From Nibricoccus sp. (GTDB lineage Bacteria; Verrucomicrobiota; Verrucomicrobiia; Opitutales; Opitutaceae), in NCBI GenBank assembly GCA_047602425.1, contig JASGHG010000001.1, forward strand, positions 32,001-96,000: DNA of 64,000 bases, given 5' to 3'. Shown piece by piece: positions 39,911 through 55,885 of the stretch; position 1 is the first letter of the stretch; each line of letters starts with the position of its first letter. Made by a program: the position numbers and the translations under genes. The notes under the pieces are model-generated. The model saw only the letters and a list, made by a program, of their open reading frames with translations, had not been told where the DNA came from and did not search any database.

Positions 39911-40160
39911 TTCCGCATCCAAAACGCTTTTGTCGGACCGTCGGGATGATTCGGCTGCGCTAAAACACGGTGGGGTTGCTGTTTATTGGATAGCAAAACC
40001 TGTCCCTAGAGCTAAATTGCATGACTAGCGGCTGCGTCCGCTAATCCCATCGCGTTTACAGCATCCTTACGACAATGAATGGCACCAGGGGGGCGTTCGC
40101 CGGTCTACCTGCGCGACCCAATCGTCCATCTCGCATGCCTCCTTGGCTGCGCTTCACCCT

Positions 40161-43100
40161 ATGCACCAGGCACCGGAACTCCAACCTTCTCCTGCAACCG
40201 CCCCTTCCGTCAGCACGAGTCCGCTCGATCCGCTTGCGCCCGCCCGCCAGCGTCTGACGAAACTTTTCGAGTTCCTCAAGGCCTACTCGGATTTGAGGTC
40301 CCCGCCGGTTCGCCACATCGCCGACCATCCTGGTTCGTTCTGGCTTGATAAATTACCCGCCCATTCGTGCGTCGAACTCTACCGCGACGTTCCACAGGCA
40401 GAGGACGATTTTGAGGGCAACGATATTGTTCTGCGGCTGCGCCGTCCCGAGACAACGCCCTGCCCCCTCCCGCCCGCCATCCTTTCGGAATGGCTCATGC
40501 CCGGCTGGAAGGATTTCGATGGACCCAGCGAGGCGCTGAGTACGCGCACCCTTACTGGAGCCGCAGGCCAGACGATTGAAGAACGTTTTCACACGGATGC
40601 TCGCCGTCCGACCGCACTACGCCAATGGCAGGAACAACGCAACCAGTGGCATATGACCGAACGCGCAGCTCGCGAGGCCCTGACGCTTTTCGAAACTGCC
40701 TACGCTTGGTATGGCGCGCAGGAACGCGAGGGCGAGCGTGTGGAACTTCTTGTCGGTGACGGCTTGTTGTGCTGCCCGGATGAAAGCGGCGAGTTCCGAC
40801 ATCCGATCTTGCTGCAAAAACTCGAACTCGAATTCTATCCCGAAAAAGCCCAGCCCGAATTCGTTTTCCGGAAACGCGAGCAATCGCCCACGCTCTACCT
40901 CGAATTTCTCCAGGCGCTCCCCGGCGCCGACGCCCAGCAAATCGGCCGTTGCGTGGACGAACAAAAACGCAGCGAGTTTTCGCCGCTCAGCGACGAGGAC
41001 ACCAATGGATTTTTCCGCCGCCTCATCCAAGGGCTGTTCCCCAGCCGCGGCCAATTCCTCACCGGCAGCGATGCGGTCCGCGCTCTGGCCAAGCCTTTTA
41101 TTCCCGGCCAGGCGCCCGTGCTCTTGCGCCAGCCCGCCATTTTCATGCGCGAGCGACGCACCGGCCCCGAGAATATTTTTAACCTCGTGCTCGAGGACAT
41201 CGCCACGCGTGACGAATTTCCGGCTTCGCTTCTGCAAATTCTGGGTTTCAACAGCCAGCCGCTCAAACCCGAACCCGCTGTCATCGGCACGGGAATTTCG
41301 GTCGGGAATGAGGACGAGACGATTCTCTTCAGCAAACCGGCCAATCGCGAACAACTCGAGATCGCCAAGCAACTCGCCAAGCGCGATTGCGTGCTCGTGC
41401 AGGGTCCGCCCGGAACCGGCAAGACCCACACCATCGCCAACCTGCTCGGACACTTCCTGGCCCAGGGCAAACGCGTGCTCGTCACCGCGCACACGCCCAA
41501 GGCCTTGCGCGTCCTCCGTCAGAAAATCGTCGAACCTCTCCAGCCGCTTTGCATCAGCGTCCTTCAAAACGACAAACAGAGCCAGGAAGAGCTGCAATCC
41601 GCAGTGCAAAAAATCCACGTTCGCCTGAGCCAGGACAGCGACTTGCTCGAACGCGATGCGCAAAATCTGCAATCCGAACGCCTGCGCATTCTGGAGGCAT
41701 TGCGCTCCGCCCGGAAGCACCTGCTCGTCGCCCGTCAGGACGAAATTTTCGAAATCACCCTCGGCGAAAAAACCTTCCGCCCCGTCGACGCCGCCCGCCT
41801 GGTCAATTCGGGTGTTGGCTCCAATGACTGGATCCCCAGTCCCGTCGAACTCGGCGCCGCGATTCCCCTTTCCCACTCGGAAATCGTCGAACTTTACCAA
41901 ACGAATGTCCGCCTTTCGCTAGAGGACGAACGCGCAATTGCCGCGTTTCGGCCCGATCCGGCCGGCCTTCCTCCACCGCACGAGTTCAAAGGCGCGATTG
42001 ACGAACTTTCTTCTATCGCCACCGACAACCTCCGCCTGCGCGACGACCTTTGGGACAATTCCCGCGAGCCAGGCGAAATCGCCGAGTTCGACCGCATGCT
42101 GGATCACGCAAGTCGAACGATCGAATTTTTACGCGACAGCACCCAGTGGCAATTGCTCGCGCTTCAAGCCGGCCGCGACGGCAAGGTCGCACGTCGCGAA
42201 TGGGAATCGCTCATCCGGCAAATCGAGTCGACATGGACCGAGGTTCACGAATGCCACACACTTGTCATGGAGCACGGTCCGATGCTCACCGATACCCGCG
42301 ATCCGCACGAACTGCTCGCCATCATCGACGAAGCCATCGCGTACCGCGAAGCCGGGCATTCGTTTGGCTTGATGACCAAGCTCACGCGTCGCAGTGCCCA
42401 CGAGCTTCAGGCTCAGGCCCGTGTCGACAACCGCCCGCTTGATCTAAATGACCTGACTCACCTGCGCGCCATCCGTGCGCTGCTGCGCATGCGCCACCTA
42501 CGCGCCGAACTTGTCCAGCGTTGGAATCGCCAGATGGCCTGCAACGGAGGACTCGCCACATCCGAGCTCAGCGATCAGCCCGAGAAGGTTTGCAAACAAT
42601 TCGTTCCGCAACTCCAGACCTGCCTCGACTGGCATACCACCGTCTGGCAACCGCTCGAAGCGGAGTTCGACCGCCTGGGTTTCATGTGGGGCAAATTTCT
42701 CAATTCCACCCCGCCCCTCGCCGGCGAAAATGCCCAGCTGCGCCGCATCCGGAAGGCCATTCTCGGCGAACTCGGCACCATTCTACAATCGCGCAGCCGC
42801 TGGCTCCGCAAACGCCAGCTCAGCACCAAGCTCGACGGCTGGCTTGAAAAACTCAAAAGCACCGGGCGTTCCGAAGCTCCAGTCACGCGCCGTTTGCGCG
42901 ACGCCGTGAAAGGCGGCCTTTTCGGCGAGTACCAAACTTCCTACCGCGAACTAATCCGGTTGAAATCCCTCGAACCCGACCTCGAGCGCCGCGCGGAGTT
43001 GCTCGATCGTCTCACCAAATCCGCCGCCGCCTGGGCCTCGGCGATCGAAAATCGTCTGCCAGTGCATGCCGCCGCGGAGCCGCCGGGCGATCCACTCCAG

Positions 43101-44789
43101 GCTTGGGAATGGCGCCAGCTCCATGACGAACTGGATCGCAGAGCCAAAGTCTCCCTCGATCAACTTCAGCAGCGCATCGAGCGCCTCACGCATCAGCTGC
43201 TCGATATCACCGCCCAAATCGTCGAAAAACGCACCTGGCTGAAACAAATTCAGCAAACCGGTGACGCCCACAAGCAGGCCCTCGGTGCGTTTTCCGCAAT
43301 GCGCAACAAGCTCACCAAAACCGGCAAAGGCGTCCGCGACGCCGAACTCCGCGCCGCCGCCCGCGACGAGATGTCGACCGCCAAGGACGCCGTGCCGGTT
43401 TGGATCATGCCCTTGGTTGAAGTTGCCGAAACCTTCGATCCGCGCCGCGCCCGCTTTGACGTCATCATTATCGACGAGGCCAGCCAGTGCGATCCCATGT
43501 CGCTCTTCGCGCTCTACCTCGGTAAGCAGGCCATTGTCGTCGGCGACGACGAACAGGTCACACCCGTAGCCGTGGGCGTCGATGCGAGCGAGATCAGCAA
43601 GCTCATTCGCGTCTTCCTCGATTCCGTTCCGCATAAGGAGCTCTACGATGGCGAAACCTCGGTCTACGAACTCGCCCAGATTGCCTTCGGCGGCGTCATT
43701 CGCCTGACCGAGCATTTCCGCTGCGCGCCTGACATCATCGCCTTCAGCAACAGCCTCTCCTACAAAGGCGAGGTCAAGCCGTTGCGCGAAACCTCCATCA
43801 TCCCGCTCACACCGCACGTTGTCGCCCACCACGTCAAAGACGGTCGCGATACCGGCGAAAATCTCAACGACGCCGAAGCCGAGGCCGTGGCCTCGCTCAT
43901 CTGCGCGGCGATCGAACAGCCCGAATACGCGCGCAACGAGTCCGGCGAGCCCATGACGTTTGGTGTGGTCTCGTTGGTTGGTGACAAGCAAGCGCTCAAG
44001 ATCGATAGTCTCCTGCGCCAGCGCCTGGAACCCAGCGAATACCGCCGCCGCCAGATTCTCTGCGGCGACTCCGCCCAGTTCCAAGGCGACGAACGTGACG
44101 TCATGTTCCTTTCCGTCGTCGACGCGCCGCCCAGTCAGCCACCGCTCGCCCTCCGTCAAGAAGGGCCGAAGAAGATCTTCAAAAAGCGCTTCAACGTCGC
44201 CGCCAGCCGCGCCCGCAACCAGATGTGGGTCGTTCACTCGCTCAATCCCGCGATCGATCTTCAGCCGACGGACTATCGCCGCCGCGTGATCGAACACGCA
44301 CTCGATCCGAAAGCGTGGGAACGCGATCTCAAGAAACGTACGCGCAATGAAAACCGTCCACGTTACCTCGAAGACGGCGTACGCCAGCGCCTGATCGAAT
44401 ACGGCTACAACGTCACGCCGCAGTACCAAGCCGGCGCGTACTTGATCGATCTCGTGGTCGTTGGCGAAAACGCCCGCCTCGCCATCGAATGCGACGGCGA
44501 ACGCTTCCACAGCCCCGAAAAACTTCAGGAAGACCTGGAACGCCAGGCCGTGCTCGAACGGCTTGGTTGGACCTTCGTGCGCGTCCGCGGCAGTCTTTTC
44601 TTCCGCGACGAAACACGCGCGCTTGAACCCGTCTTCCGTCGCCTGCAGGAGCTAAAGATCGAACCAATCCGCCCCGACAAGTTCGTTCCCTCGCCCGCGG
44701 CCGATCAGACCGTCAACAAAATCGTCCATCGCGCCGAGCAACTCCGCCATCTCTGGTCCGCCCAGACCTCCCACCGGTCCAAGGCATGA
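40161..44789 (+). CDS. Superfamily 1 (UPF1/DNA2-like) helicase with C-terminal Vsr/DUF559/MTES_1575-like endonuclease
   Basis: GPPGTGKT, IIDEASQ, GDDEQ, EHFRC, FQGDERD and RFNVAASRAR; C-terminal IDLVV...LAIECDG..FH...D..RQ..LERLGW.F.R. Confidence 0.92.
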   Translation: MHQAPELQPSPATAPSVSTSPLDPLAPARQRLTKLFEFLKAYSDLRSPPVRHIADHPGSFWLDKLPAHSCVELYRDVPQAEDDFEGNDIVLRLRRPETTPCPLPPAILSEWLMPGWKDFDGPSEALSTRTLTGAAGQTIEERFHTDARRPTALRQWQEQRNQWHMTERAAREALTLFETAYAWYGAQEREGERVELLVGDGLLCCPDESGEFRHPILLQKLELEFYPEKAQPEFVFRKREQSPTLYLEFLQALPGADAQQIGRCVDEQKRSEFSPLSDEDTNGFFRRLIQGLFPSRGQFLTGSDAVRALAKPFIPGQAPVLLRQPAIFMRERRTGPENIFNLVLEDIATRDEFPASLLQILGFNSQPLKPEPAVIGTGISVGNEDETILFSKPANREQLEIAKQLAKRDCVLVQGPPGTGKTHTIANLLGHFLAQGKRVLVTAHTPKALRVLRQKIVEPLQPLCISVLQNDKQSQEELQSAVQKIHVRLSQDSDLLERDAQNLQSERLRILEALRSARKHLLVARQDEIFEITLGEKTFRPVDAARLVNSGVGSNDWIPSPVELGAAIPLSHSEIVELYQTNVRLSLEDERAIAAFRPDPAGLPPPHEFKGAIDELSSIATDNLRLRDDLWDNSREPGEIAEFDRMLDHASRTIEFLRDSTQWQLLALQAGRDGKVARREWESLIRQIESTWTEVHECHTLVMEHGPMLTDTRDPHELLAIIDEAIAYREAGHSFGLMTKLTRRSAHELQAQARVDNRPLDLNDLTHLRAIRALLRMRHLRAELVQRWNRQMACNGGLATSELSDQPEKVCKQFVPQLQTCLDWHTTVWQPLEAEFDRLGFMWGKFLNSTPPLAGENAQLRRIRKAILGELGTILQSRSRWLRKRQLSTKLDGWLEKLKSTGRSEAPVTRRLRDAVKGGLFGEYQTSYRELIRLKSLEPDLERRAELLDRLTKSAAAWASAIENRLPVHAAAEPPGDPLQAWEWRQLHDELDRRAKVSLDQLQQRIERLTHQLLDITAQIVEKRTWLKQIQQTGDAHKQALGAFSAMRNKLTKTGKGVRDAELRAAARDEMSTAKDAVPVWIMPLVEVAETFDPRRARFDVIIIDEASQCDPMSLFALYLGKQAIVVGDDEQVTPVAVGVDASEISKLIRVFLDSVPHKELYDGETSVYELAQIAFGGVIRLTEHFRCAPDIIAFSNSLSYKGEVKPLRETSIIPLTPHVVAHHVKDGRDTGENLNDAEAEAVASLICAAIEQPEYARNESGEPMTFGVVSLVGDKQALKIDSLLRQRLEPSEYRRRQILCGDSAQFQGDERDVMFLSVVDAPPSQPPLALRQEGPKKIFKKRFNVAASRARNQMWVVHSLNPAIDLQPTDYRRRVIEHALDPKAWERDLKKRTRNENRPRYLEDGVRQRLIEYGYNVTPQYQAGAYLIDLVVVGENARLAIECDGERFHSPEKLQEDLERQAVLERLGWTFVRVRGSLFFRDETRALEPVFRRLQELKIEPIRPDKFVPSPAADQTVNKIVHRAEQLRHLWSAQTSHRSKA

Positions 44790-47425: not shown

Positions 47426-48115
47426 ATGAAACGAACCATTATCATTCTTGTCATCCTCGCGCTCGGCATTGGCGGAGGCGCCTATATTTACCAGTCCAAC
47501 AAGGCGGAACGCGAACGCGAGTTGGCCGAACGCAGAGCCGCTTTCGAAAAAAACGAACAAGCCCGCCGCGCCGAGGAAGCCCGCAAGAAAGCCGAGGCCG
47601 AAGCTGAAGCGCAGCGTCTCGCCGAAGCGCGCAAAAAAGCTGAAGAAGAAGCCGCTGCGAAGGAGCAGGAACGCCTCCGTGCCGAGCAGGCGGCTGCCGA
47701 AGCCGCCCGCCTCGCCGCCGAAGAAGAGGCCAAACGTCAGGAAGCCGAGCGCCAACGTCTCGCCTTGGAGAAATTAAAAGCTACGGAGGAAGCCAAAGCC
47801 GAACAGGCTCGTCGCGAGAAGGCCGCCGCCGAGGCTGAGGCCGCTCGCATCGCCGCTCTCGAAGAAGTTGCGCGCCTCGAACGTGAAAAAAAGGAAGCTG
47901 CCGACCGCGAAGCAGCCCGCCTCGCCGCCTTGAAACGCCAGCAGGAACTGGAAGCGGCCGAAGCGCAGAACAAAATTCCGGTCATTCAGCGCTCGATCAT
48001 GCCCTCCGACTACAAACGCCGCGAGCACTACTACCTCAATGTTGAGATGGAAAACGAACAGAACAGAAAAACGCCCACTCGCCCGCAACCGGCGGCCAAG
48101 AGCACCGCTCCCTAA
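47426..48115 (+). CDS. Membrane-anchored coiled-coil (TolA-like Ala/Glu/Arg-rich) protein
   Basis: N-terminal TM followed by a long EAARK-type helix. Confidence 0.75.
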   Translation: MKRTIIILVILALGIGGGAYIYQSNKAERERELAERRAAFEKNEQARRAEEARKKAEAEAEAQRLAEARKKAEEEAAAKEQERLRAEQAAAEAARLAAEEEAKRQEAERQRLALEKLKATEEAKAEQARREKAAAEAEAARIAALEEVARLEREKKEAADREAARLAALKRQQELEAAEAQNKIPVIQRSIMPSDYKRREHYYLNVEMENEQNRKTPTRPQPAAKSTAP

Positions 48116-48146
48116 CCCCTTCAATTAGCGCCACTCCCACGTTCTA

Positions 48147-48188
48147 ACGGCCGTCCTGCAAGCCTGCGTGACGGCCGTGTTTATTTTT
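48147..48188 (+). terminator. Probable terminator hairpin
   Basis: ACGGCCGTC...GACGGCCGT followed by a T-rich tract. Confidence 0.55.
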
Positions 48189-48243
48189 CCCAAATAGGAC
48201 TTGCTTCGGCGCGATAAAAAACTCTTAGTTCGCGGTTTTATTT

Positions 48244-48558
48244 ATGAAAGCGACCATCAAAACCCAAGGCCAGCAGTTCGCTGTATCCGAGGGCGACATC
48301 TTAATCGTTAACCGCTACCAGAACTCCGTGGCCGGCTCGACCGTCCAGATCAACGAAGTCCTCTCGGCTGGCGAAGGTGAAAATTTCAAAGTCGGCTCGC
48401 CCACCATCGACGGCGCCAGCGTGACTGCCACCATCCTTGAAAACAAGCGTGGCAAGAAAGTCATCGTCTTCAAGAAACGGAAACGTAAGGGCATGGAGCG
48501 CAAGCAAGGCCATCGCCAGGACTTGTCCGTCATCAAAATCGAATCCATTAACGCTTAA
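48244..48558 (+). CDS. rplU: 50S ribosomal protein L21
   Basis: [12 protein letters not shown] and KKVIVFK.....G..RKQGHRQ. Confidence 0.97.
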
Positions 48559-48572
48559 GGAGTACATTCACC

Positions 48573-48812
48573 ATGGCGCACAAAAAAGGTCAGGGAACAT
48601 CAAGCAACGGCCGCGATAGCGCTTCACAACGTCTCGGCGTTAAGAAGTTCGGCGGTCAGGAAGTCGTCGCCGGCAACATCCTCGTTCGCCAACGCGGCAC
48701 CAAGATCCACGCCGGCCGCAACGTCGGCACGGGTCGTGACTGGACGCTCTTCGCCCTCAAGGACGGCACCGTCAAATACGACAAGGTTCATCGCCGCGTC
48801 GAGATCGTCTGA
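48573..48812 (+). CDS. rpmA: 50S ribosomal protein L27
   Basis: [31 protein letters not shown] and GRDWTLFAL. Confidence 0.98.
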
Positions 48813-48836
48813 ACCAACAGACAACGTTAAACTTTC

Positions 48837-48870
48837 AAAACGCAGCCTTTACCGGCTGCGTTTTTTCTTT
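48837..48870 (+). terminator. Intrinsic terminator of rplU-rpmA
   Basis: AAAACGCAGCC-TTTACC-GGCTGCGTTTTTT. Confidence 0.88.
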
Positions 48871-48907
48871 TTCATCATCCGCGCACCGCAAGCCGATAAA
48901 CACCCCG

Positions 48908-49303
48908 ATGCCCAATCGTCTGCCGGAACTTCTGCGCCAACGCGCCCTTCTTCAAGAGCATCTCGCCTGGTTGGACCGCGAAATCGCCGCAGAACAAGGT
49001 TCACCAACTGCGAAATCCACATCGGAACTGAAATCGGTTCCGACCGCTGTGCTGTCCATCCCAACCGCCCGCCCGGCCGCTCCGGCAAGTACGCCTACCG
49101 CCACGACGACACCGCCTCCGCTGCCGGAAAATCCCACGGATCTGGATAAAATCGTAGCCCAATATCGCCGGGATCCCGGTTCGCTCACCCAAGATACGAG
49201 ACGGGGTTGCCTGATGATTTTTTGGATCGGTTTGGCAACCGTGTTGCTGATTTCAGGCATCGTTTACTGGTTGTATGCCCGCCACCTAGGACGGTGGTGG
49301 TGA
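48908..49303 (+). CDS. Hypothetical protein with N-terminal coiled segment, Pro/Thr linker and C-terminal TM
   Basis: L.EL.RQRALLQEHLAWLDREIA and RRGC preceding a TM segment. Confidence 0.75.
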   Translation: MPNRLPELLRQRALLQEHLAWLDREIAAEQGSPTAKSTSELKSVPTAVLSIPTARPAAPASTPTATTTPPPLPENPTDLDKIVAQYRRDPGSLTQDTRRGCLMIFWIGLATVLLISGIVYWLYARHLGRWW

Positions 49304-49391
49304 GGTAAGTTGCGACAGGGATTTTTCGCGTCGCAGCTTTTAAGGAAATTCGCCGAACCACGGAGAAAACCTCGGGTCTAGCCGAGAGATT

Positions 49392-49850
49392 TTGTCCGAA
49401 ACCACCCCAAAAGAATCCTTTCTTCAAGGAGCTCCCCGAGCAGAGCTCGCCCGGCTGTGCCGGCAAATCTGCCTTGCCCGCGAGCAGGGCAAAATGTCGC
49501 CCGATATCGCCGACGAAGAATTCCGCCTTGCCCTGAATACCGTCCGGGCAACTTACAATTCCGTGAACATCAGCGACACCGACCTCGACGCCGTTGTCGC
49601 CGTCGAAGAAAACCGCGTCGCTGACGCTGCGGTTCTCGCGCAATTGATTTCCTCGCAGCTGGCAGCCATTTCGCCGGCAGGTTTGCCCGTACAAAAACCG
49701 GCCTTTCCTGCTTCCGAAACCGCCGCGAGCCTGCCTACGCCCATACCATTCCCCTCGGGCGGCTCGGCTCCGTCGCTCAATGTCGCCGATCTCATCGACG
49801 GCATGCTCGCCCAGGAGAAACGCGACCTTAAAACCAGTAAAAAGTACTAA
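49392..49850 (+). CDS. Hypothetical protein (helical N-domain, Pro-rich linker, C-terminal amphipathic helix); putative partner of the actin homolog
   Basis: TTG start (uncertain); ends 51 bp upstream of the actin gene on the same strand; C-terminal VADLIDGMLAQE. Confidence 0.7.
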   Translation: MSETTPKESFLQGAPRAELARLCRQICLAREQGKMSPDIADEEFRLALNTVRATYNSVNISDTDLDAVVAVEENRVADAAVLAQLISSQLAAISPAGLPVQKPAFPASETAASLPTPIPFPSGGSAPSLNVADLIDGMLAQEKRDLKTSKKY

Positions 49851-49901
49851 TTTCCAGCGCTGGCTTCAGCAAAACCTCATCCAAAGAACCAAACTCACTC
49901 C

Positions 49902-51056
49902 ATGAGCACATCAGCCGCTGCAGATAAAACATCACCCACCGCGATCGCCTCGCCACAACCCGCGGCGACCACGACCAAACCAGTCAAAACCGCCACTAAA
50001 ACCATTTTGGCCGGTTTCGATCTGGGCACCAACAAATCCTGCATCCTCGCCGGACCCGCGGGCACCAACGACATCACCCTCAGCAAGGTCATTCCGAGCG
50101 TAGTCGGCTACGTCAAGGAAGGCATTGTCGATGGCATCATCGCCGGCAATGCCACCATTCTTTTTGGTGAAGACGCGCTAGCCAACAGCCTGCATGTCGA
50201 CCTCATTGCCCCGATCGCCGAGGGCGTCATCGCCCACCCGCACGCCACGCGGGATTTTTTCCAACGCGTTCGCTCCCTTATCGATCCCGCCAATCAGGCT
50301 GAGATTCGCATCGTCGTCGGCATTCCCGCCAATGCCGACGAGACCGCCCGCGAAGACATTCGCCAATGCTCACTCGGCATCTTTGACCGCATTTTACTCA
50401 TTCCCGAACCATTCCTCGCTGCCCTCGGCTTCCGCGACGATTCGCGCGTGGGCCAGCCGGGTTACGTCGACCCGGTGACCAATGCTCTCTTCATCGACAT
50501 CGGCGGAGGCACCAGCGATCTCTGCCGCGTGCAAGGCTATTTCCCTTCGCGCGAAGACCAGATCTGCATTCCTTTCGCCGGCGATGCAATCGACGAAATC
50601 CTCCACACCGAACTCGATCGTTTGTATCCAAATAATGGATTGTCCCGGCACAAGGTCCGCGAAATCAAAGAGGCCCATTGCTACGTCGGACCCGTCCGCA
50701 AACCGATCGATGTCCGTGTGATCATCGGCGGTAAAGCCCACATGCTCGAACTCGGCGAAGCGCTCGGACGTGCCGCAAACACCCTGATCGACAAAATTTA
50801 TCCTTCGCTCACCGCGCTGATCAGCCGCGCTTCCTCCGACTCTGTCGTGACGCTCCTGCAGAACATCATCATCACCGGCGGCGGTTCGCAGATCAAAGGC
50901 ATCGATACCGTGCTTCAAAAGCGGCTCGCCGACGATGGCTTCGAAGCTCCCAAGGTCCGTCTCGCCGGTCAGGACTACAAGCGTTACGTCGCGATGGGCG
51001 CCCTCAAGGCCGCCCGTGCCGCCCGCGAAAACCAATGGCAATATTTGCTGAGATAA
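49902..51056 (+). CDS. Actin-like ATPase, MamK-like branch of the MreB/actin family
   Basis: Phosphate-1 FDLGT, connect-1 EPFLAA, phosphate-2 DIGGGTSD and adenosine ITGGGSQ. SVVGY, G.FP..EDQ...AG..IDE, LQNI and GAL..A......W..L resemble MamK rather than MreB. Confidence 0.88.
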   Translation: MSTSAAADKTSPTAIASPQPAATTTKPVKTATKTILAGFDLGTNKSCILAGPAGTNDITLSKVIPSVVGYVKEGIVDGIIAGNATILFGEDALANSLHVDLIAPIAEGVIAHPHATRDFFQRVRSLIDPANQAEIRIVVGIPANADETAREDIRQCSLGIFDRILLIPEPFLAALGFRDDSRVGQPGYVDPVTNALFIDIGGGTSDLCRVQGYFPSREDQICIPFAGDAIDEILHTELDRLYPNNGLSRHKVREIKEAHCYVGPVRKPIDVRVIIGGKAHMLELGEALGRAANTLIDKIYPSLTALISRASSDSVVTLLQNIIITGGGSQIKGIDTVLQKRLADDGFEAPKVRLAGQDYKRYVAMGALKAARAARENQWQYLLR

Positions 51057-51092
51057 AAACCCGCTAGCATTCCGGGATCTCATCCTCAGCTG

Positions 51093-51122
51093 GGCGGACG
51101 CGCAACCCGCGTCCGCCTTTTT
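51093..51122 (+). terminator. Intrinsic terminator after the actin gene
   Basis: GGCGGACGCG-CAACC-CGCGTCCGCC followed by TTTTT. Confidence 0.85.
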
Positions 51123-51153
51123 GTCCCAATTGACTGGGATAGGTCGAAAAAAA

Positions 51154-51510
51154 TCAGCCCAGATCTTTTCCTTGTTCTCGGGCTATCACCCACGCCAGCA
51201 TCAGCAACGAACGCTCGGCATCCGGCATCGCCGACTGAGCCTTTAAGATGAGGTGCAACCGCTGGCGGGGCACGCCGAGAAAACGCGCGAGGCGCACTTT
51301 CTCACCCCGTTTCACCAGCTGGCTGGTCACGCGCCTCCGCAGTTCGTTCCACAGCGGAGTATCGACTCCGGGTTTGAGCCCCTCGCCCGCTTTGCCCGAA
51401 CGCCGATGCGCCAGTTTGGCCGTCTGCAGCAAGGTTTCGCGCGCAGCGTTAACCAACGCTTCCATTACAGAATCCAGCATTTCCAATCTGGGATGAATCG
51501 AATTACTCAT
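51154..51510 (-). CDS. Small putative helix-turn-helix DNA-binding protein
   Basis: GEKVRLARFLGVPRQRLHLIL resembles an XRE-type HTH; basic, 118 aa. Confidence 0.7.
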   Translation of the reverse strand: MSNSIHPRLEMLDSVMEALVNAARETLLQTAKLAHRRSGKAGEGLKPGVDTPLWNELRRRVTSQLVKRGEKVRLARFLGVPRQRLHLILKAQSAMPDAERSLLMLAWVIAREQGKDLG

Positions 51511-51535
51511 GGTTTTTTAGATCTAGTCACTGATT

Positions 51536-51634
51536 GCGTCATCCATTGGATGACGCTCATGCGGAAAATCTCAGGAACCGTTGTAATTCAAAAATCCCAT
51601 CTTGCCAGCCCATTGTCATCTATTGGATGACAAT
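51536..51634. promoter_or_regulatory. Two palindromic sites GTCATCYATTGGATGAC upstream of the HTH gene
   Basis: GCGTCATCCATTGGATGACGC (51536-51556) and ATTGTCATCTATTGGATGACAAT (51612-51634); cores are 77 bp apart. Confidence 0.8.
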
Positions 51635-51783
51635 CTGCCTGGGCAGCCATTTGCCGCGACACCGGTCAAGGGCTGGACCAGTCTGGCGCTATCCGCAGTG
51701 CCTCGAGCTATCGGATGGTAAACGGAGTCATTCTCGGGTCGGCGAAGATACGTTGCTTCTGCTATCGCGTCGTTTGAAACGAT

Positions 51784-54057
51784 CTAACGTGGCGCGGGGA
51801 CGCTTGCTACATCGACCTTGCCGGCAGAGGTCGCGGCGCCTTCGGCGAGGGTGCGACTGGTTCGATAGTCCACCTTGCCGGTGCCCAGCATGGGAATGCT
51901 TTCCACGCGCAGGACATTTCTCGGTATCCAAAGGTTCGGCAGGCCCGCCGTGAGAAGAACTTCCCGCACGTGATCGGTGCCGATATCCTCGGTCGTCAGC
52001 AAAACTAGCGCCTCGCCTTTGGCCGGGTCTGGTATGCTGACTACAATCACTTTCGGGGCGTCCAATTGATCCAGGCCGAGACCGTCAGCCAGCTTCTGCT
52101 CAATCGTCGCCAGCGGCACCATTTCGCCCGCGATTTTGGCAAAACGCGAAAGCCGGCCTTCGATATGAAGGAAGCCTTCCGCATCGAACCGAGCGAGATC
52201 GCCCGTGACCAGCCAGCCATCACGGAAGGCCGCGGCGGTCTTCGCTGGATCCTTCAGATAGCCGCCAAACACATTCGCCCCGCGCAGCAAAAGAATCCCG
52301 GTCTCGGTCAGCGCCAGTTCGTCGTGCGTATCTGGATCGACAATACGTGCGGTCAATCCCGGGAGCATGCGACCCACGGAGCCGAGGCGTTTTCCGTGCT
52401 GGTGTTCGGCCGTCGATGTGGTGATGGGCGGATCGGGCTGGTTGACGTTGGTGACAGGGGTTGTTTCGGTCAAACCGTAGCCTTGGAGGATTTCGATGTG
52501 AAATTTCTCCATGAACGCGTCGTAGAGCTCGATTGGCATTTTTTCCGCGCCCGAGACGACAAGTTCCAGGGAACGCAGTTCGCCTTCCTCCGCTTTCTTC
52601 AACAACGGCCTCAAAAATGAGGGCGCCCCAATCAGCACCGAGGCGGATTCCTCGCGCACTCCATCCACGATTTTGCGCGTATCCAGCGGGCCCGGCACCG
52701 TGACCACGCGGCAACCGCGCAGCATCATGTACCAGAGCGTAACGGTGGAGCCAAAACTATGAAAGAGCGGCAGGCAGGCCAGCACGGTCGCCGTGTTGGG
52801 AAGAATGGCCATCGAGGAAATCTGCCAGCAGTTGGCCAGAACGTTCCGATGGGTCAGCACGACCCCTTTCGGCTCGCCAGAACTTCCGCTGGTGAAAAGC
52901 AGGCACGCTTCATCATCGCCGCCTCTGCGGGGCAAGCCGAGCAAGGTCGGTATAATCTGGTTCGGCAACGTCCACACCAGGGCCAGCCAGAACAACAGCC
53001 GGCCTTTGCCCGTAGCCATGATTTCACTTTTCAGGTCGAGAGTGCGCTCCGGCCAGGGAAAGTCGGGAAACTTCACCTTCATCGCATCGGCGGAGATCAC
53101 CGTTTTGACTTCCGCGAGTTGCAGACTCGTTTCGACAGCGGTACGGCCCGCGGTGAAATTGAGGTTAACGGGAATCTTGCCCGCGCAAACCACGGCGAGG
53201 TTCGCGATGAAGCCGCCCGCTCCCGGCGGCAACACAATGCCCACACGACGCTCCGGAACCATCTTGCGCAAACGGCGGGAGTACGCCGCCGCCACACCCA
53301 AGAGGCGTGCGGCAGTGACCTCGCGCCGCTCCGCCGTGCGATCGATCACTTCCACATGCGCCGGCCGTTTCGCCAACGATCGCACCACTTCGCGGCCGAG
53401 ATGCCGGCGCAACACCGGTCGTTCGTGAAATGCGATGGCTCCCAGATCGAGCAACTCCCGGCGCACCGTCATTGCATCGGCTTTATGCGCGACCAGAGGT
53501 TTGCCAAAGCAAACGCAGATGTGGGTCGGCATGAGGCGCGGCGATTTGAAAAGATATTTGTTACCCGAAAACGTGAAGACTGAACCCCAAATGCCGTCGT
53601 GCGCGACCGGAACTACCGGCACACCGGCCTTGCGCGCCATGATTTCGAATCCGCGTTGAACTTCCATCAATTGACCGGTTCTGGAAATTTCGCCTTCCGG
53701 AAAAAGACAAACCGCGTCACCGGCCTTGAGCGCATCGATCACCTTGCGCGTGCTGGCCAAAGTGTGTTTCGGCGAAATCACAATCGCGCCGCTGATCCGC
53801 ACCACCCACTCGAAAAACCAGTGATGGTTCAACTGCTCGTGGGCCACAAAACGCAGCCTCCGGTTGCGGCAGGCGAGTTGCATGATAACCGCGTCCACGT
53901 ATGAAAGGTGATTGGGCAAAATCAGCACGCCGCCTTTCTCCGGAATATTTTCCGAGCCGATGACACGCACGCGATACAGCAGGAGCGCCACGATCCCCAC
54001 AAGAATCTCAAGGGGCCAAGGCAGATAAGTGCGGCGAAGGGAGGCTGGAAGGGCCAT
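51784..54057 (-). CDS. aas: Bifunctional 2-acyl-GPE acyltransferase / acyl-ACP synthetase (Aas-like)
   Basis: PlsC motifs NHLSYVD and FPEGEISRTG; AMP-binding FTSGSSGEPKGV, GYGLTET, TGD and RFAKIAGEMV. Confidence 0.92.
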   Translation of the reverse strand: MALPASLRRTYLPWPLEILVGIVALLLYRVRVIGSENIPEKGGVLILPNHLSYVDAVIMQLACRNRRLRFVAHEQLNHHWFFEWVVRISGAIVISPKHTLASTRKVIDALKAGDAVCLFPEGEISRTGQLMEVQRGFEIMARKAGVPVVPVAHDGIWGSVFTFSGNKYLFKSPRLMPTHICVCFGKPLVAHKADAMTVRRELLDLGAIAFHERPVLRRHLGREVVRSLAKRPAHVEVIDRTAERREVTAARLLGVAAAYSRRLRKMVPERRVGIVLPPGAGGFIANLAVVCAGKIPVNLNFTAGRTAVETSLQLAEVKTVISADAMKVKFPDFPWPERTLDLKSEIMATGKGRLLFWLALVWTLPNQIIPTLLGLPRRGGDDEACLLFTSGSSGEPKGVVLTHRNVLANCWQISSMAILPNTATVLACLPLFHSFGSTVTLWYMMLRGCRVVTVPGPLDTRKIVDGVREESASVLIGAPSFLRPLLKKAEEGELRSLELVVSGAEKMPIELYDAFMEKFHIEILQGYGLTETTPVTNVNQPDPPITTSTAEHQHGKRLGSVGRMLPGLTARIVDPDTHDELALTETGILLLRGANVFGGYLKDPAKTAAAFRDGWLVTGDLARFDAEGFLHIEGRLSRFAKIAGEMVPLATIEQKLADGLGLDQLDAPKVIVVSIPDPAKGEALVLLTTEDIGTDHVREVLLTAGLPNLWIPRNVLRVESIPMLGTGKVDYRTSRTLAEGAATSAGKVDVASVPAPR

Positions 54058-54182: not shown

Positions 54183-54825
54183 CTAGGGTATCGGGTGCTT
54201 CCATGATCGCAAGTCGTTCGCCAGCGCACGAAAACCCGGAAAATCGTTTTCCAATCGCCGCGTGTCGCGAGCGTGGCGCCGCGCCTCTGCAAGGGCGCAG
54301 TCAATCTCATGAGGAAGGCTGGGCCGTTCCGTGCCATAGACGCGCACCTTGAGTTCGTGGCGTGTGTACGGCGGCCGGTTTTCCTCCTGGCCCTGCAACC
54401 AGACAGTCTCGGTCACCTTTTCGTCGCGGTCCGCACAAGTACCAGCTTTCGATCGCTGGAACGGCCACGCCCACCCCGCGCAAAATCCGCGTACGCCCCC
54501 GCGCCGGTGGCAGTTTTTTCACTGTCTGCCGAAAGACCGCGCGCAACTGGCACAGCCTGCAATGGGGGTGAAAATAGCCAGGCGCATCGTGCGGCTCGGT
54601 ATGCACGACCGAGTCGTCCGCATCCACCACTACAGCGAGCCCGACCGCATCGGTGTTGAAGTGCAGGTGACGAATAATCGCCGGCATGACCTGCGCCACG
54701 GAAGGCCAGCCGCGCGCACGCAGGGCGGCTTGGACCAGTTGAATTGGTTCGTCCAGTACCCCTTCAATCAAAACTCGGAGCGCCGCTTCGTCCGCAGGCG
54801 ATTCGCTCAGGATCGCGAGTTTCAT
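54183..54825 (-). pseudogene. TOPRIM-like (DUF4276/RloB-like) protein, split by a 1-nt insertion near 54428 (pseudogene or sequencing error)
   Basis: The N-part (LSES..DE, VVVDADD, AIESWYL) continues in another frame as (R)DEKVTETVW...FRAL..DL; removing one base gives a 213-aa ORF. Confidence 0.75.
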
Positions 54826-54874
54826 GCGATTGGACTTGGTTCAGTCACCTCACACGAAACCGTTTTTCTATGCC

Positions 54875-55885
54875 TCATTCGCGCTCCTCCGGATCTTTTT
54901 CCCGCGGAACACCGCCTAAAACACCCGAGAACCAAATATCGCCCAGCGGGCCTTCGCTCAATAACTCCTGATAGTCCGGGCGGTCCACCAATCTCTCGAA
55001 ACGCGCTTCAAGGCCCTCCTTCTGAGCGATCACCACTTCCTCCGGATGTTCCTTGAACAGGTCGAGCAGGTAGGGCGAATGCGTGGTCGCCACGATCTGC
55101 ACCGGCGCGCGTTTTTCGCCGAAAGATTCCGGATGGCTCAAACGGTACAACGCGTCGCGGATTTCGCGCAGGAGCCGCGGATGGATTCCACGGTCAATTT
55201 CCTCGATGCAAATGATCGAAGGCGGCGAGGGATCAAGCGCCAGCACCAGCGTGGCGAGGGTGTAGAGTGTGCCTTGCGACATCGCGTCGGCGAGGATGCG
55301 CTCGTTGCTGTCCGCAAATCGCGCGGCCAGCGCCACCTTTCCGTCCGCTTGCTGAACCACCTCCAATCCACCAAACTCCGTCAGCAACCGGCAAAATTCC
55401 GCTTCAAGCCGCTCAAAGGTCTCCGGCCGCTGATGCTGCCAGCGGGCGACCACGGCCGCGACGTTGCCGGCATTGCCAGCGAGTTCGACGCTGGCATCGC
55501 GTTTCGCCGGCTCCGCCATCGCATAGTGATCGAAAAGGTAACTGCGGATGCGCAAAATCTCGCTCATCGCTTGCGACCAAAGCTCGGGCGAGGGACTTCG
55601 CACCTTCAGCAGGTCGCACGCAAAATCAGTTGAGCAAGCAAGCGAGACCTCAAGTTCTTCAAATGGAGCGGTGAAACGAAAATCGATTTCCGGGCTGGCA
55701 AAGGGAGGAGTCGTGCCGTGCGCGTCTTTGACCGGAAGTTTGGTCAACCCGCGCAGGAGCAGCAGCGCCTGAATCAGACTCGTTTTGCCCGAACCATTGG
55801 GCCCCACCACAAGATTGAAAGGAGCCAGGGCGAGGCTGGTGTTTCGCAGCGCCTTGAAGTTCTTGAATGTGACAGAGGCGATCAC
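54875..55885 (-). CDS. ABC-type ATPase, AAA_21/OLD-like family
   Basis: F.NFK.L, Walker A GPNGSGKT, signature MSQGT, Walker B/D-loop ICIEEIDRGIHP, H-loop TTHSP and C-terminal LGDIWFSG..GGVP. Confidence 0.9.
   Translation of the reverse strand: MIASVTFKNFKALRNTSLALAPFNLVVGPNGSGKTSLIQALLLLRGLTKLPVKDAHGTTPPFASPEIDFRFTAPFEELEVSLACSTDFACDLLKVRSPSPELWSQAMSEILRIRSYLFDHYAMAEPAKRDASVELAGNAGNVAAVVARWQHQRPETFERLEAEFCRLLTEFGGLEVVQQADGKVALAARFADSNERILADAMSQGTLYTLATLVLALDPSPPSIICIEEIDRGIHPRLLREIRDALYRLSHPESFGEKRAPVQIVATTHSPYLLDLFKEHPEEVVIAQKEGLEARFERLVDRPDYQELLSEGPLGDIWFSGVLGGVPREKDPEERE

Follow-up and report, generated by a model that had tools for sequence, protein, structure and literature searches.

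A bacterial actin of the BeeR family and a tightly linked upstream partner gene in Nibricoccus sp.

Layout of the locus

The DNA analysed (the window) was a stretch of 64 000 nucleotides from Nibricoccus sp. The source genome is a single contig of 5,158,924 bases that is 99.97 % complete; the locus is chromosomal and adjoins rplU-rpmA. Two open reading frames (ORFs), confirmed from the ORF list and the translations, lie on the plus strand where the original prediction had placed them. The first (49392..49850; 152 aa, TTG start) encodes an undescribed BeeR-associated protein, here called the partner, and the second (49902..51056; 384 aa) is beeR, encoding an actin-like ATPase of the BeeR family (NF053558, PDB 8R2N); the gap between them is 51 nt. 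Within the partner gene, a three-helix N-terminal domain (residues 14–93, 49431..49670) was delimited from an AlphaFold2 model, conservation and charge, and a Pro-rich, low-confidence linker (residues 94–130, 49671..49781) from the model and an alignment. The remaining segment (49782..49835) encodes a C-terminal helix with the acidic amphipathic motif VADLIDGML, a candidate BeeR-binding element.

A terminator had been predicted behind the actin gene, and a G+C-rich hairpin of 11 pairs, nine of them G–C, is present at 51092–51118, starting 36 nt past the beeR stop codon and followed by a T run. The whole element (51092..51128, plus strand) resembles an intrinsic terminator by consensus match and may mark the end of the partner–beeR unit. 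The scan returned nine terminator-like sites against 5.2±2.6 in shuffled sequences, a count not above chance; the hairpin 3′ of beeR is one of the two longest sites (11 pairs) and the richest in G–C pairs. A sigma-70 promoter scan gave no match.

Other features of the window were recorded. The gene upstream of the partner (48908–49303, plus strand) specifies 131 aa, with a helical head that is conserved, then a Pro-rich linker, and finally a C-terminal membrane helix with an almost invariant Gly-Cys in front of it. It matched neither Pfam nor NCBIfam and occurs in 149 of the 201 genomes of the family, where it often stands between rpmA and the partner gene. A 118-aa gene without a Pfam match (51154–51510, minus strand), which we take by eye to be helix-turn-helix-like, has just upstream of it two copies of a 17-nt palindrome (51538–51554 and 51615–51631; 94 % alike, 77 nt apart), and gene and palindromes together suggest an autoregulated repressor. 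At 54307–55885 (minus strand) an AAA_21/AAA_15 ATPase gene and, behind it, a 172-aa gene without a Pfam family may form a defence or toxin–antitoxin-like pair. A 1548-aa protein encoded at 40143–44789 (plus strand) shows, by eye, a P-loop, helicase-like motifs and a C-terminal nuclease-like motif.

Identity and range of the actin

The 384-aa product had been described as a MamK-like actin. By sequence it is BeeR, neither MamK nor MreB, and thus belongs to an actin family that is already known. The BeeR model NF053558 matched with 580.7 bits (cut-off 530) over profile positions 1–349 of 349, and the deposited chain 8r2n_A was matched over residues 6–383 with an E value of 6.8e-187, compared with about 1e-26 for MamK chains. 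The nearest other family was MamK (NF040964, 203.4 bits, below its cut-off of 400); MreB models gave 39–45 bits against cut-offs of 293–366 (39.1 against 365.75 for one of them), and the protein does not cluster inside MreB. The kinship with MamK and the separation from MreB stand, and what had been overlooked is that the family was already named and its structure solved. The motifs quoted for the protein are present in the translation, the last of them one spacer residue off. Its closest named relatives carry the labels Verrucomicrobiota or Opitutaceae.

It had also been stated that mreC, mreD and mrdA do not follow the actin gene. They are found elsewhere with the true mreB (518.6 bits, C1:3.888 Mb), in a cluster at C1:3883689–3888796 that continues from mreB with mreC, a weak match to mreD (19.9 bits, below the Pfam cut-off of 24) and a PBP2 gene (mrdA).

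In the presence of ATP, BeeR from O. terrae (B1ZZL4, PDB 8R2N) assembles into a rigid tube of three strands, the first bacterial actin of this kind to be described (PMC11929497); the paper and the preprint both state that the function is not known. The N-terminal tail of the O. terrae protein prevents bundling (PMC11929497; bioRxiv 10.1101/2023.11.07.565980), and the preprint describes no depolymerisation of purified BeeR over about 12 h (bioRxiv 10.1101/2023.11.07.565980). Both papers treat the protein alone, with no function, partner or gene context (PMC11929497; 10.1101/2023.11.07.565980); neither the preprint main text nor one supplement of the PNAS paper mentions the partner or the gene context. 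No further BeeR papers were found by a search whose coverage was thin for subscription journals.

The residues of the major cross-strand contacts (E147, E151, R240, N244, I275, L282 and L383) are identical to those of 8R2N, and the trio of a minor 35 Å2 contact is changed (Q155, A305 and S308 in the present protein). BeeR proteins have an extension of 30–50 residues ahead of the actin fold; here an Ala/Thr/Pro/Lys-rich N-terminal extension covers approximately residues 1–34, the model match starting at residue 35. As an aside, Arg252 and Asn380 of the BeeR papers are His252 and Gln380 (Asn379) in the deposited 8r2n_A, and are the same here; these may be numbering slips.

BeeR was detected in 17 of the 251 genomes of a phylum-wide sample, all of them in the source order, and a few named BeeR loci are labelled Verrucomicrobiales (L173, L175). 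The range is accordingly narrower than "conserved across the phylum", being one order in the sample and about half of the family, and this narrowed range allows natural gains and losses of BeeR to be compared.

The partner protein and its linkage to BeeR

The 152-aa partner matched no family in Pfam or NCBIfam. Pfam searching with all 69 rows of the alignment behind the wider partner profile (A5) returned eight one-off weak matches, none common to the rows. A profile search of the PDB yielded no solved relative, the one match being of low complexity (E 0.042). With the predicted model, a fold search gave no clear match (best Z 7.6, among helical bundles, where this range is common) and Foldseek gave nothing at E≤0.001; the ESM Atlas assigned no family (top feature score 0.83, below the bar of 0.9). 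The protein is, as far as could be searched, undescribed. The family is of some size, with 46 homologues by word search and 383 representatives at E≤0.001 after 50 % clustering.

A helical head, a Pro-rich linker and a terminal amphipathic helix had been proposed for it, and this order of elements is seen in the AlphaFold2 model (145-row alignment), with helices at residues 14–31, 37–55 and 62–93 in the head and 131–148 at the terminus; pLDDT is 85–98 over residues 11–90 and about 60 in the linker. Conserved residues of the head are R24, C27, E72 and R75 (R24, C27 and E72 in 88–94 % of 69 rows), and its net charge is −4 here (family median −3). The terminal motif, alignable throughout the 69 rows of A5, is hydrophobic at positions 131, 134, 135, 138 and 139 (fraction 0.84–1.0) and acidic at 133 and 136 (D136 in 87 % of the rows), with a net charge of −3 here and a family median of −4. 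The amphipathic character follows from this conservation pattern; by hydrophobic moment it does not, the 11-residue value lying under the listing threshold of 0.55. No membrane segment was found in the partner, the best 19-residue hydropathy (1.4) being located in the head.

Both ends are conserved around a linker that is Pro-rich when short and acidic when long. Here it has about 36 residues (25 % Pro, 3 % acidic); in the 69 aligned rows its length ranges from 23 to 173 residues, some relatives having 130–173 residues of which 19–28 % are acidic. In three loci (L104, L106 and L107) the 166–173 linker residues are rich in Glu-Pro repeats, which recall the acidic repetitive domain of MamJ. A 572-aa form in genome G033 (L108:4776–6494, minus strand) shares the head and has a similar motif at its end, the two separated by about 400 extra residues; long forms also occur in L169, G242 and G265 (range 572–601 aa), and the insert is probably helical.

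The database form of the partner is shorter (118 aa, starting from Met35 at window position 49494), without helix 1, R24 and C27. In 36 of the 69 aligned rows (counted by eye) a TTG codon precedes the R24 column by 22–26 codons, which favours the 152-aa reading over the database form.

Linkage was examined in 201 genomes of the source family, among which BeeR, called at E≤1e-30, was present in 106 (91 above the cut-off). The partner profile A2 matched in 89 genomes, 88 of them with BeeR, and 92 of its 97 matches lie within 700 nt upstream of BeeR on the same strand. Of the other five, three stand at the edge of a contig and one, in BeeR-positive G118, is a second copy; the last, in G123, is a C-terminal fragment that contains a stop and is the single match among the 95 BeeR-negative genomes. 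A2 missed 18 BeeR-positive genomes; immediately upstream of beeR, 11 of these have a divergent homologue (E 2.5e-7 to 2.3e-3), and in the other seven no partner was found over the whole genome even by A5. The 152-aa gene is thus a real, tightly linked partner, present in 99 of the 106 BeeR-positive family genomes.

Co-occurrence in relatives was also seen in a sample of the order (n=201), with BeeR in 36 genomes, the partner in 36 and both in 34. The partner was absent from 163 of the 165 BeeR-negative genomes; A5 had been built partly from loci that it scored, and its scores are therefore inflated, which does not explain these absences, and related genomes are non-independent samples. One order exception, G371, has the partner without BeeR in a sequence that stops at the contig edge. 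In G224 (L210:4634–5243), which has no BeeR, the partner has lost its terminal motif; behind it, in a different frame, lie 17 residues that resemble positions 280–296 of the BeeR profile (E 0.033 over the eight loci searched, 3.6e-5 for the segment alone); this reads as a deletion scar through the operon. Among 80 named loci, some of which are likely to come from the same genomes as the family and order samples, 70 have the partner directly upstream, two have no room for it and eight are without it.

A midpoint-rooted tree was made of 153 distinct BeeR sequences (three dropped, having no upstream DNA; two G033-type rows labelled by hand). It holds 137 partnered sequences, one with an unlinked partner, and 15 without a partner in eight separate branches, a pattern that probably reflects an ancestral partner with occasional losses in the BeeR family. 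Since BeeR persists without a detected partner (seven of 106 genomes, 15 of 153 sequences), the partner is dispensable. BeeR without the partner is recurrent and the partner without BeeR is rare and damaged, an asymmetry typical of an accessory factor. A soluble protein that is almost never intact without BeeR offers a handle on BeeR function and makes the question directly testable.

Simple proximity does not yield this pattern, since the control neighbour, the membrane-protein gene next upstream, is common without BeeR (60 of the 95 BeeR-negative family genomes). In G218 the partner and beeR are intact on different contigs (L212 and L213) with unrelated neighbours, which suggests that the association is maintained in trans. 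Eight genomes carry two BeeR genes of full length, both of them preceded by a partner gene of their own (G074, G082, G100, G107, G149, G169, G175 and G198). Beyond the pair, gene surroundings vary across 20 wider neighbourhoods. A correlation of pairwise identities between BeeR and the partner (Spearman 0.68) was set aside as evidence, as it is expected from shared descent.

Two further observations concern individual loci. The second partner of G074 (L074) is apparently split over two frames, and one partner-less BeeR branch (L172, L175, L178 and L187, and L185) consists of metagenome-assembled genomes not labelled Opitutales, several of its sequences starting with MRTT.

Binding, possible function and comparison with known systems

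Complex prediction was carried out with BeeR residues 33–384 and the full-length partner. The score, graded as weak support, was 0.54 (runs 0.57, 0.53 and 0.54), compared with 0.00 for the best of three controls; the runs agreed in at least 36 % of contacts, with a partner pLDDT of at least 48. Of 157 solved complexes used for calibration, 116 attained the mark, as did two of 215 mismatches; 18 of the 157 and both mismatches did so at 0.60 or under. A score of 0.54 falls in a band graded more often wrong than right unless the pairing is likely beforehand, and no interface was returned. With the gene linkage as prior, this modelling makes it likely that the partner binds BeeR directly. A binding patch was also sought on BeeR by comparing 15 partner-less with 137 partnered sequences; L97/H98 ranked top and was rejected, as H98 varies in partnered clades too, and no clean surface patch was relaxed in the partner-less branches.

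From the actin identity, gene linkage, co-occurrence and domain layout, a two-gene cytoskeletal module can be proposed, in which a BeeR tube and a filament-binding accessory protein tether the filament to something cytoplasmic; we give this an even chance of being right. With ATP the present BeeR would form a rigid three-stranded tube, as judged from family membership and the retained main cross-strand residues, and the partner would be a soluble, probably less abundant accessory factor on it. We infer which end binds: the acidic amphipathic C-terminal motif, on its flexible linker, would dock on BeeR as the C-terminal peptide of ParR does on ParM, and the three-helix head would self-associate or grip a protein cargo or anchor, the linker setting the reach between BeeR and its target. 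A more specific form of this proposal is tentative: the partner may be the first cognate adaptor of a BeeR tube, docking by its C terminus, with a linker of about 25 to 400 residues, its length tuned in each lineage, and with a cytoplasmic target in the Opitutales that is neither DNA, magnetosome nor microcompartment. If true, BeeR and the partner would make up a new cytoskeletal system, for positioning or scaffolding, whose cargo has gone unrecognised.

Candidate cargoes were sought by gene content. FliF is enriched with BeeR and not required (both in 83 of the 201 family genomes, BeeR only in 23, FliF only in 41, neither in 54), and CheW gave a similar table (82, 24, 47 and 48, respectively). 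Flagella and chemotaxis thus track BeeR loosely, and this enrichment is not read as function because kin are non-independent and genome size is uncontrolled. In the source genome no class I PHA synthase was found (the positive control matched) and no gas-vesicle gene (a search without a positive control). The membrane-protein gene at 48908–49303 was considered as a third component and rejected, being unrelated to the partner and frequent in BeeR-negative genomes, as given above.

The partner might instead bind BeeR without a separate cargo, as a regulator of turnover, nucleation, capping, cross-linking or spacing; this is the main rival reading, and a less probable one. The co-occurrence and complex data fit it too, no cargo gene is conserved across the 20 wider neighbourhoods, the conserved TTG start would suggest a lower abundance of the partner, and the lack of depolymerisation of purified BeeR over about 12 h, described in the preprint, leaves room for a turnover factor. 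Linkers of up to 170 residues or a 400-residue helical insert would, however, better suit a spacer between two objects. Tether and regulator roles are not exclusive.

It is unlikely that the two proteins share a pathway or regulon without contact, the partner for instance controlling beeR expression or binding a third protein through its C-terminal motif. Co-occurrence by itself cannot show contact, a complex score of 0.54 is weak, and short acidic amphipathic motifs at protein ends have diverse protein targets, as the termini of CheZ and PopZ do. That score nevertheless compares with 0.00 for the three controls; the fold searches brought out no clear DNA-binding fold, and the acidic head has a median net charge of −3.

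A DNA-partition module like ParMR, with the head on a centromere and the tail on BeeR, is very improbable. A folded head, a flexible linker and a C-terminal helix do resemble ParR (PMC9178275), but the locus is chromosomal beside rplU-rpmA, no iteron or centromere-like array was found in 48100–51800 (the repeats are short and mostly coding), the adaptor gene comes first, and the acidic head showed no ribbon-helix-helix or helix-turn-helix match above background in the partner searches. DNA as cargo is disfavoured by the acidic head and the missing array.

Least credible of all is a relic of a magnetosome island or a positioning system for the microcompartments of the source genome: no other family comes closer than MamK (203 bits) and two shell loci exist (C1:459983–462159 and 3622773–3623282), but shell genes are independent of BeeR (of the 201 family genomes, 54 have both, 52 BeeR alone, 53 shell genes alone and 42 neither) and five Mam models (MamA, B, M, P and I) gave no match over cut-off in the 99.97 % complete genome, counts that largely refute this reading. 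MamA, MamB, MamM and MamP gave generic matches only, and MamI, searched without a positive control, gave none; no full magnetosome island was detected with these models, in agreement with the original prediction. Of the filament-plus-adaptor system for a cargo that it had put forward, the linked partner gene holds, microcompartments are independent of BeeR, DNA is disfavoured as cargo, and the adaptor role is a proposal. Overall, a known actin family is joined by an undescribed, tightly linked partner, with a mechanism that we in part infer.

Among known systems, MreB shares the actin fold and about 25–30 % identity with this BeeR and differs in its model scores and in the separate location of the true mreB with mreC, mreD and mrdA. 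The O. terrae protein (8R2N) is matched in family score, in alignment over residues 6–383, in the N-terminal extension and in the main cross-strand residues, and differs at the minor-contact positions (Q155, A305 and S308 here). No literature joining ParR, AlfB and MamJ was found. The partner may also be compared with AlfB. ParM–ParR–parC, a type II partition system, combines an actin with a small adaptor (PMC5193048); binding of the C-terminal peptide to the actin is shown for ParR (PMC9178275) and proposed for the partner. In contrast to that system, the present locus is chromosomal and has no centromere array, the head is acidic and all-helical, and BeeR would be a three-stranded tube, for which the preprint describes no depolymerisation in vitro.

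MamK–MamJ offers the other precedent for adaptor logic (PMC3905215 and PMC11628618). MamJ, of 426 aa, has as its anchor a glycine-rich membrane helix at the C terminus (PMC11628618); the partner differs in having 152 aa, a soluble form and an acidic C-terminal helix, and being without a membrane segment it cannot anchor itself as MamJ does. The MamK score is under its cut-off, no mam genes were detected with the five models, and the central acidic repetitive domain of MamJ has no counterpart in the linker here (3 % acidic). Common to both is a small partner encoded directly with the actin, with conserved ends around a hypervariable linker that in some partner relatives is Glu-Pro rich. With homology detected to neither ParR nor MamJ, the likeness of the partner to these two adaptors is one of logic.
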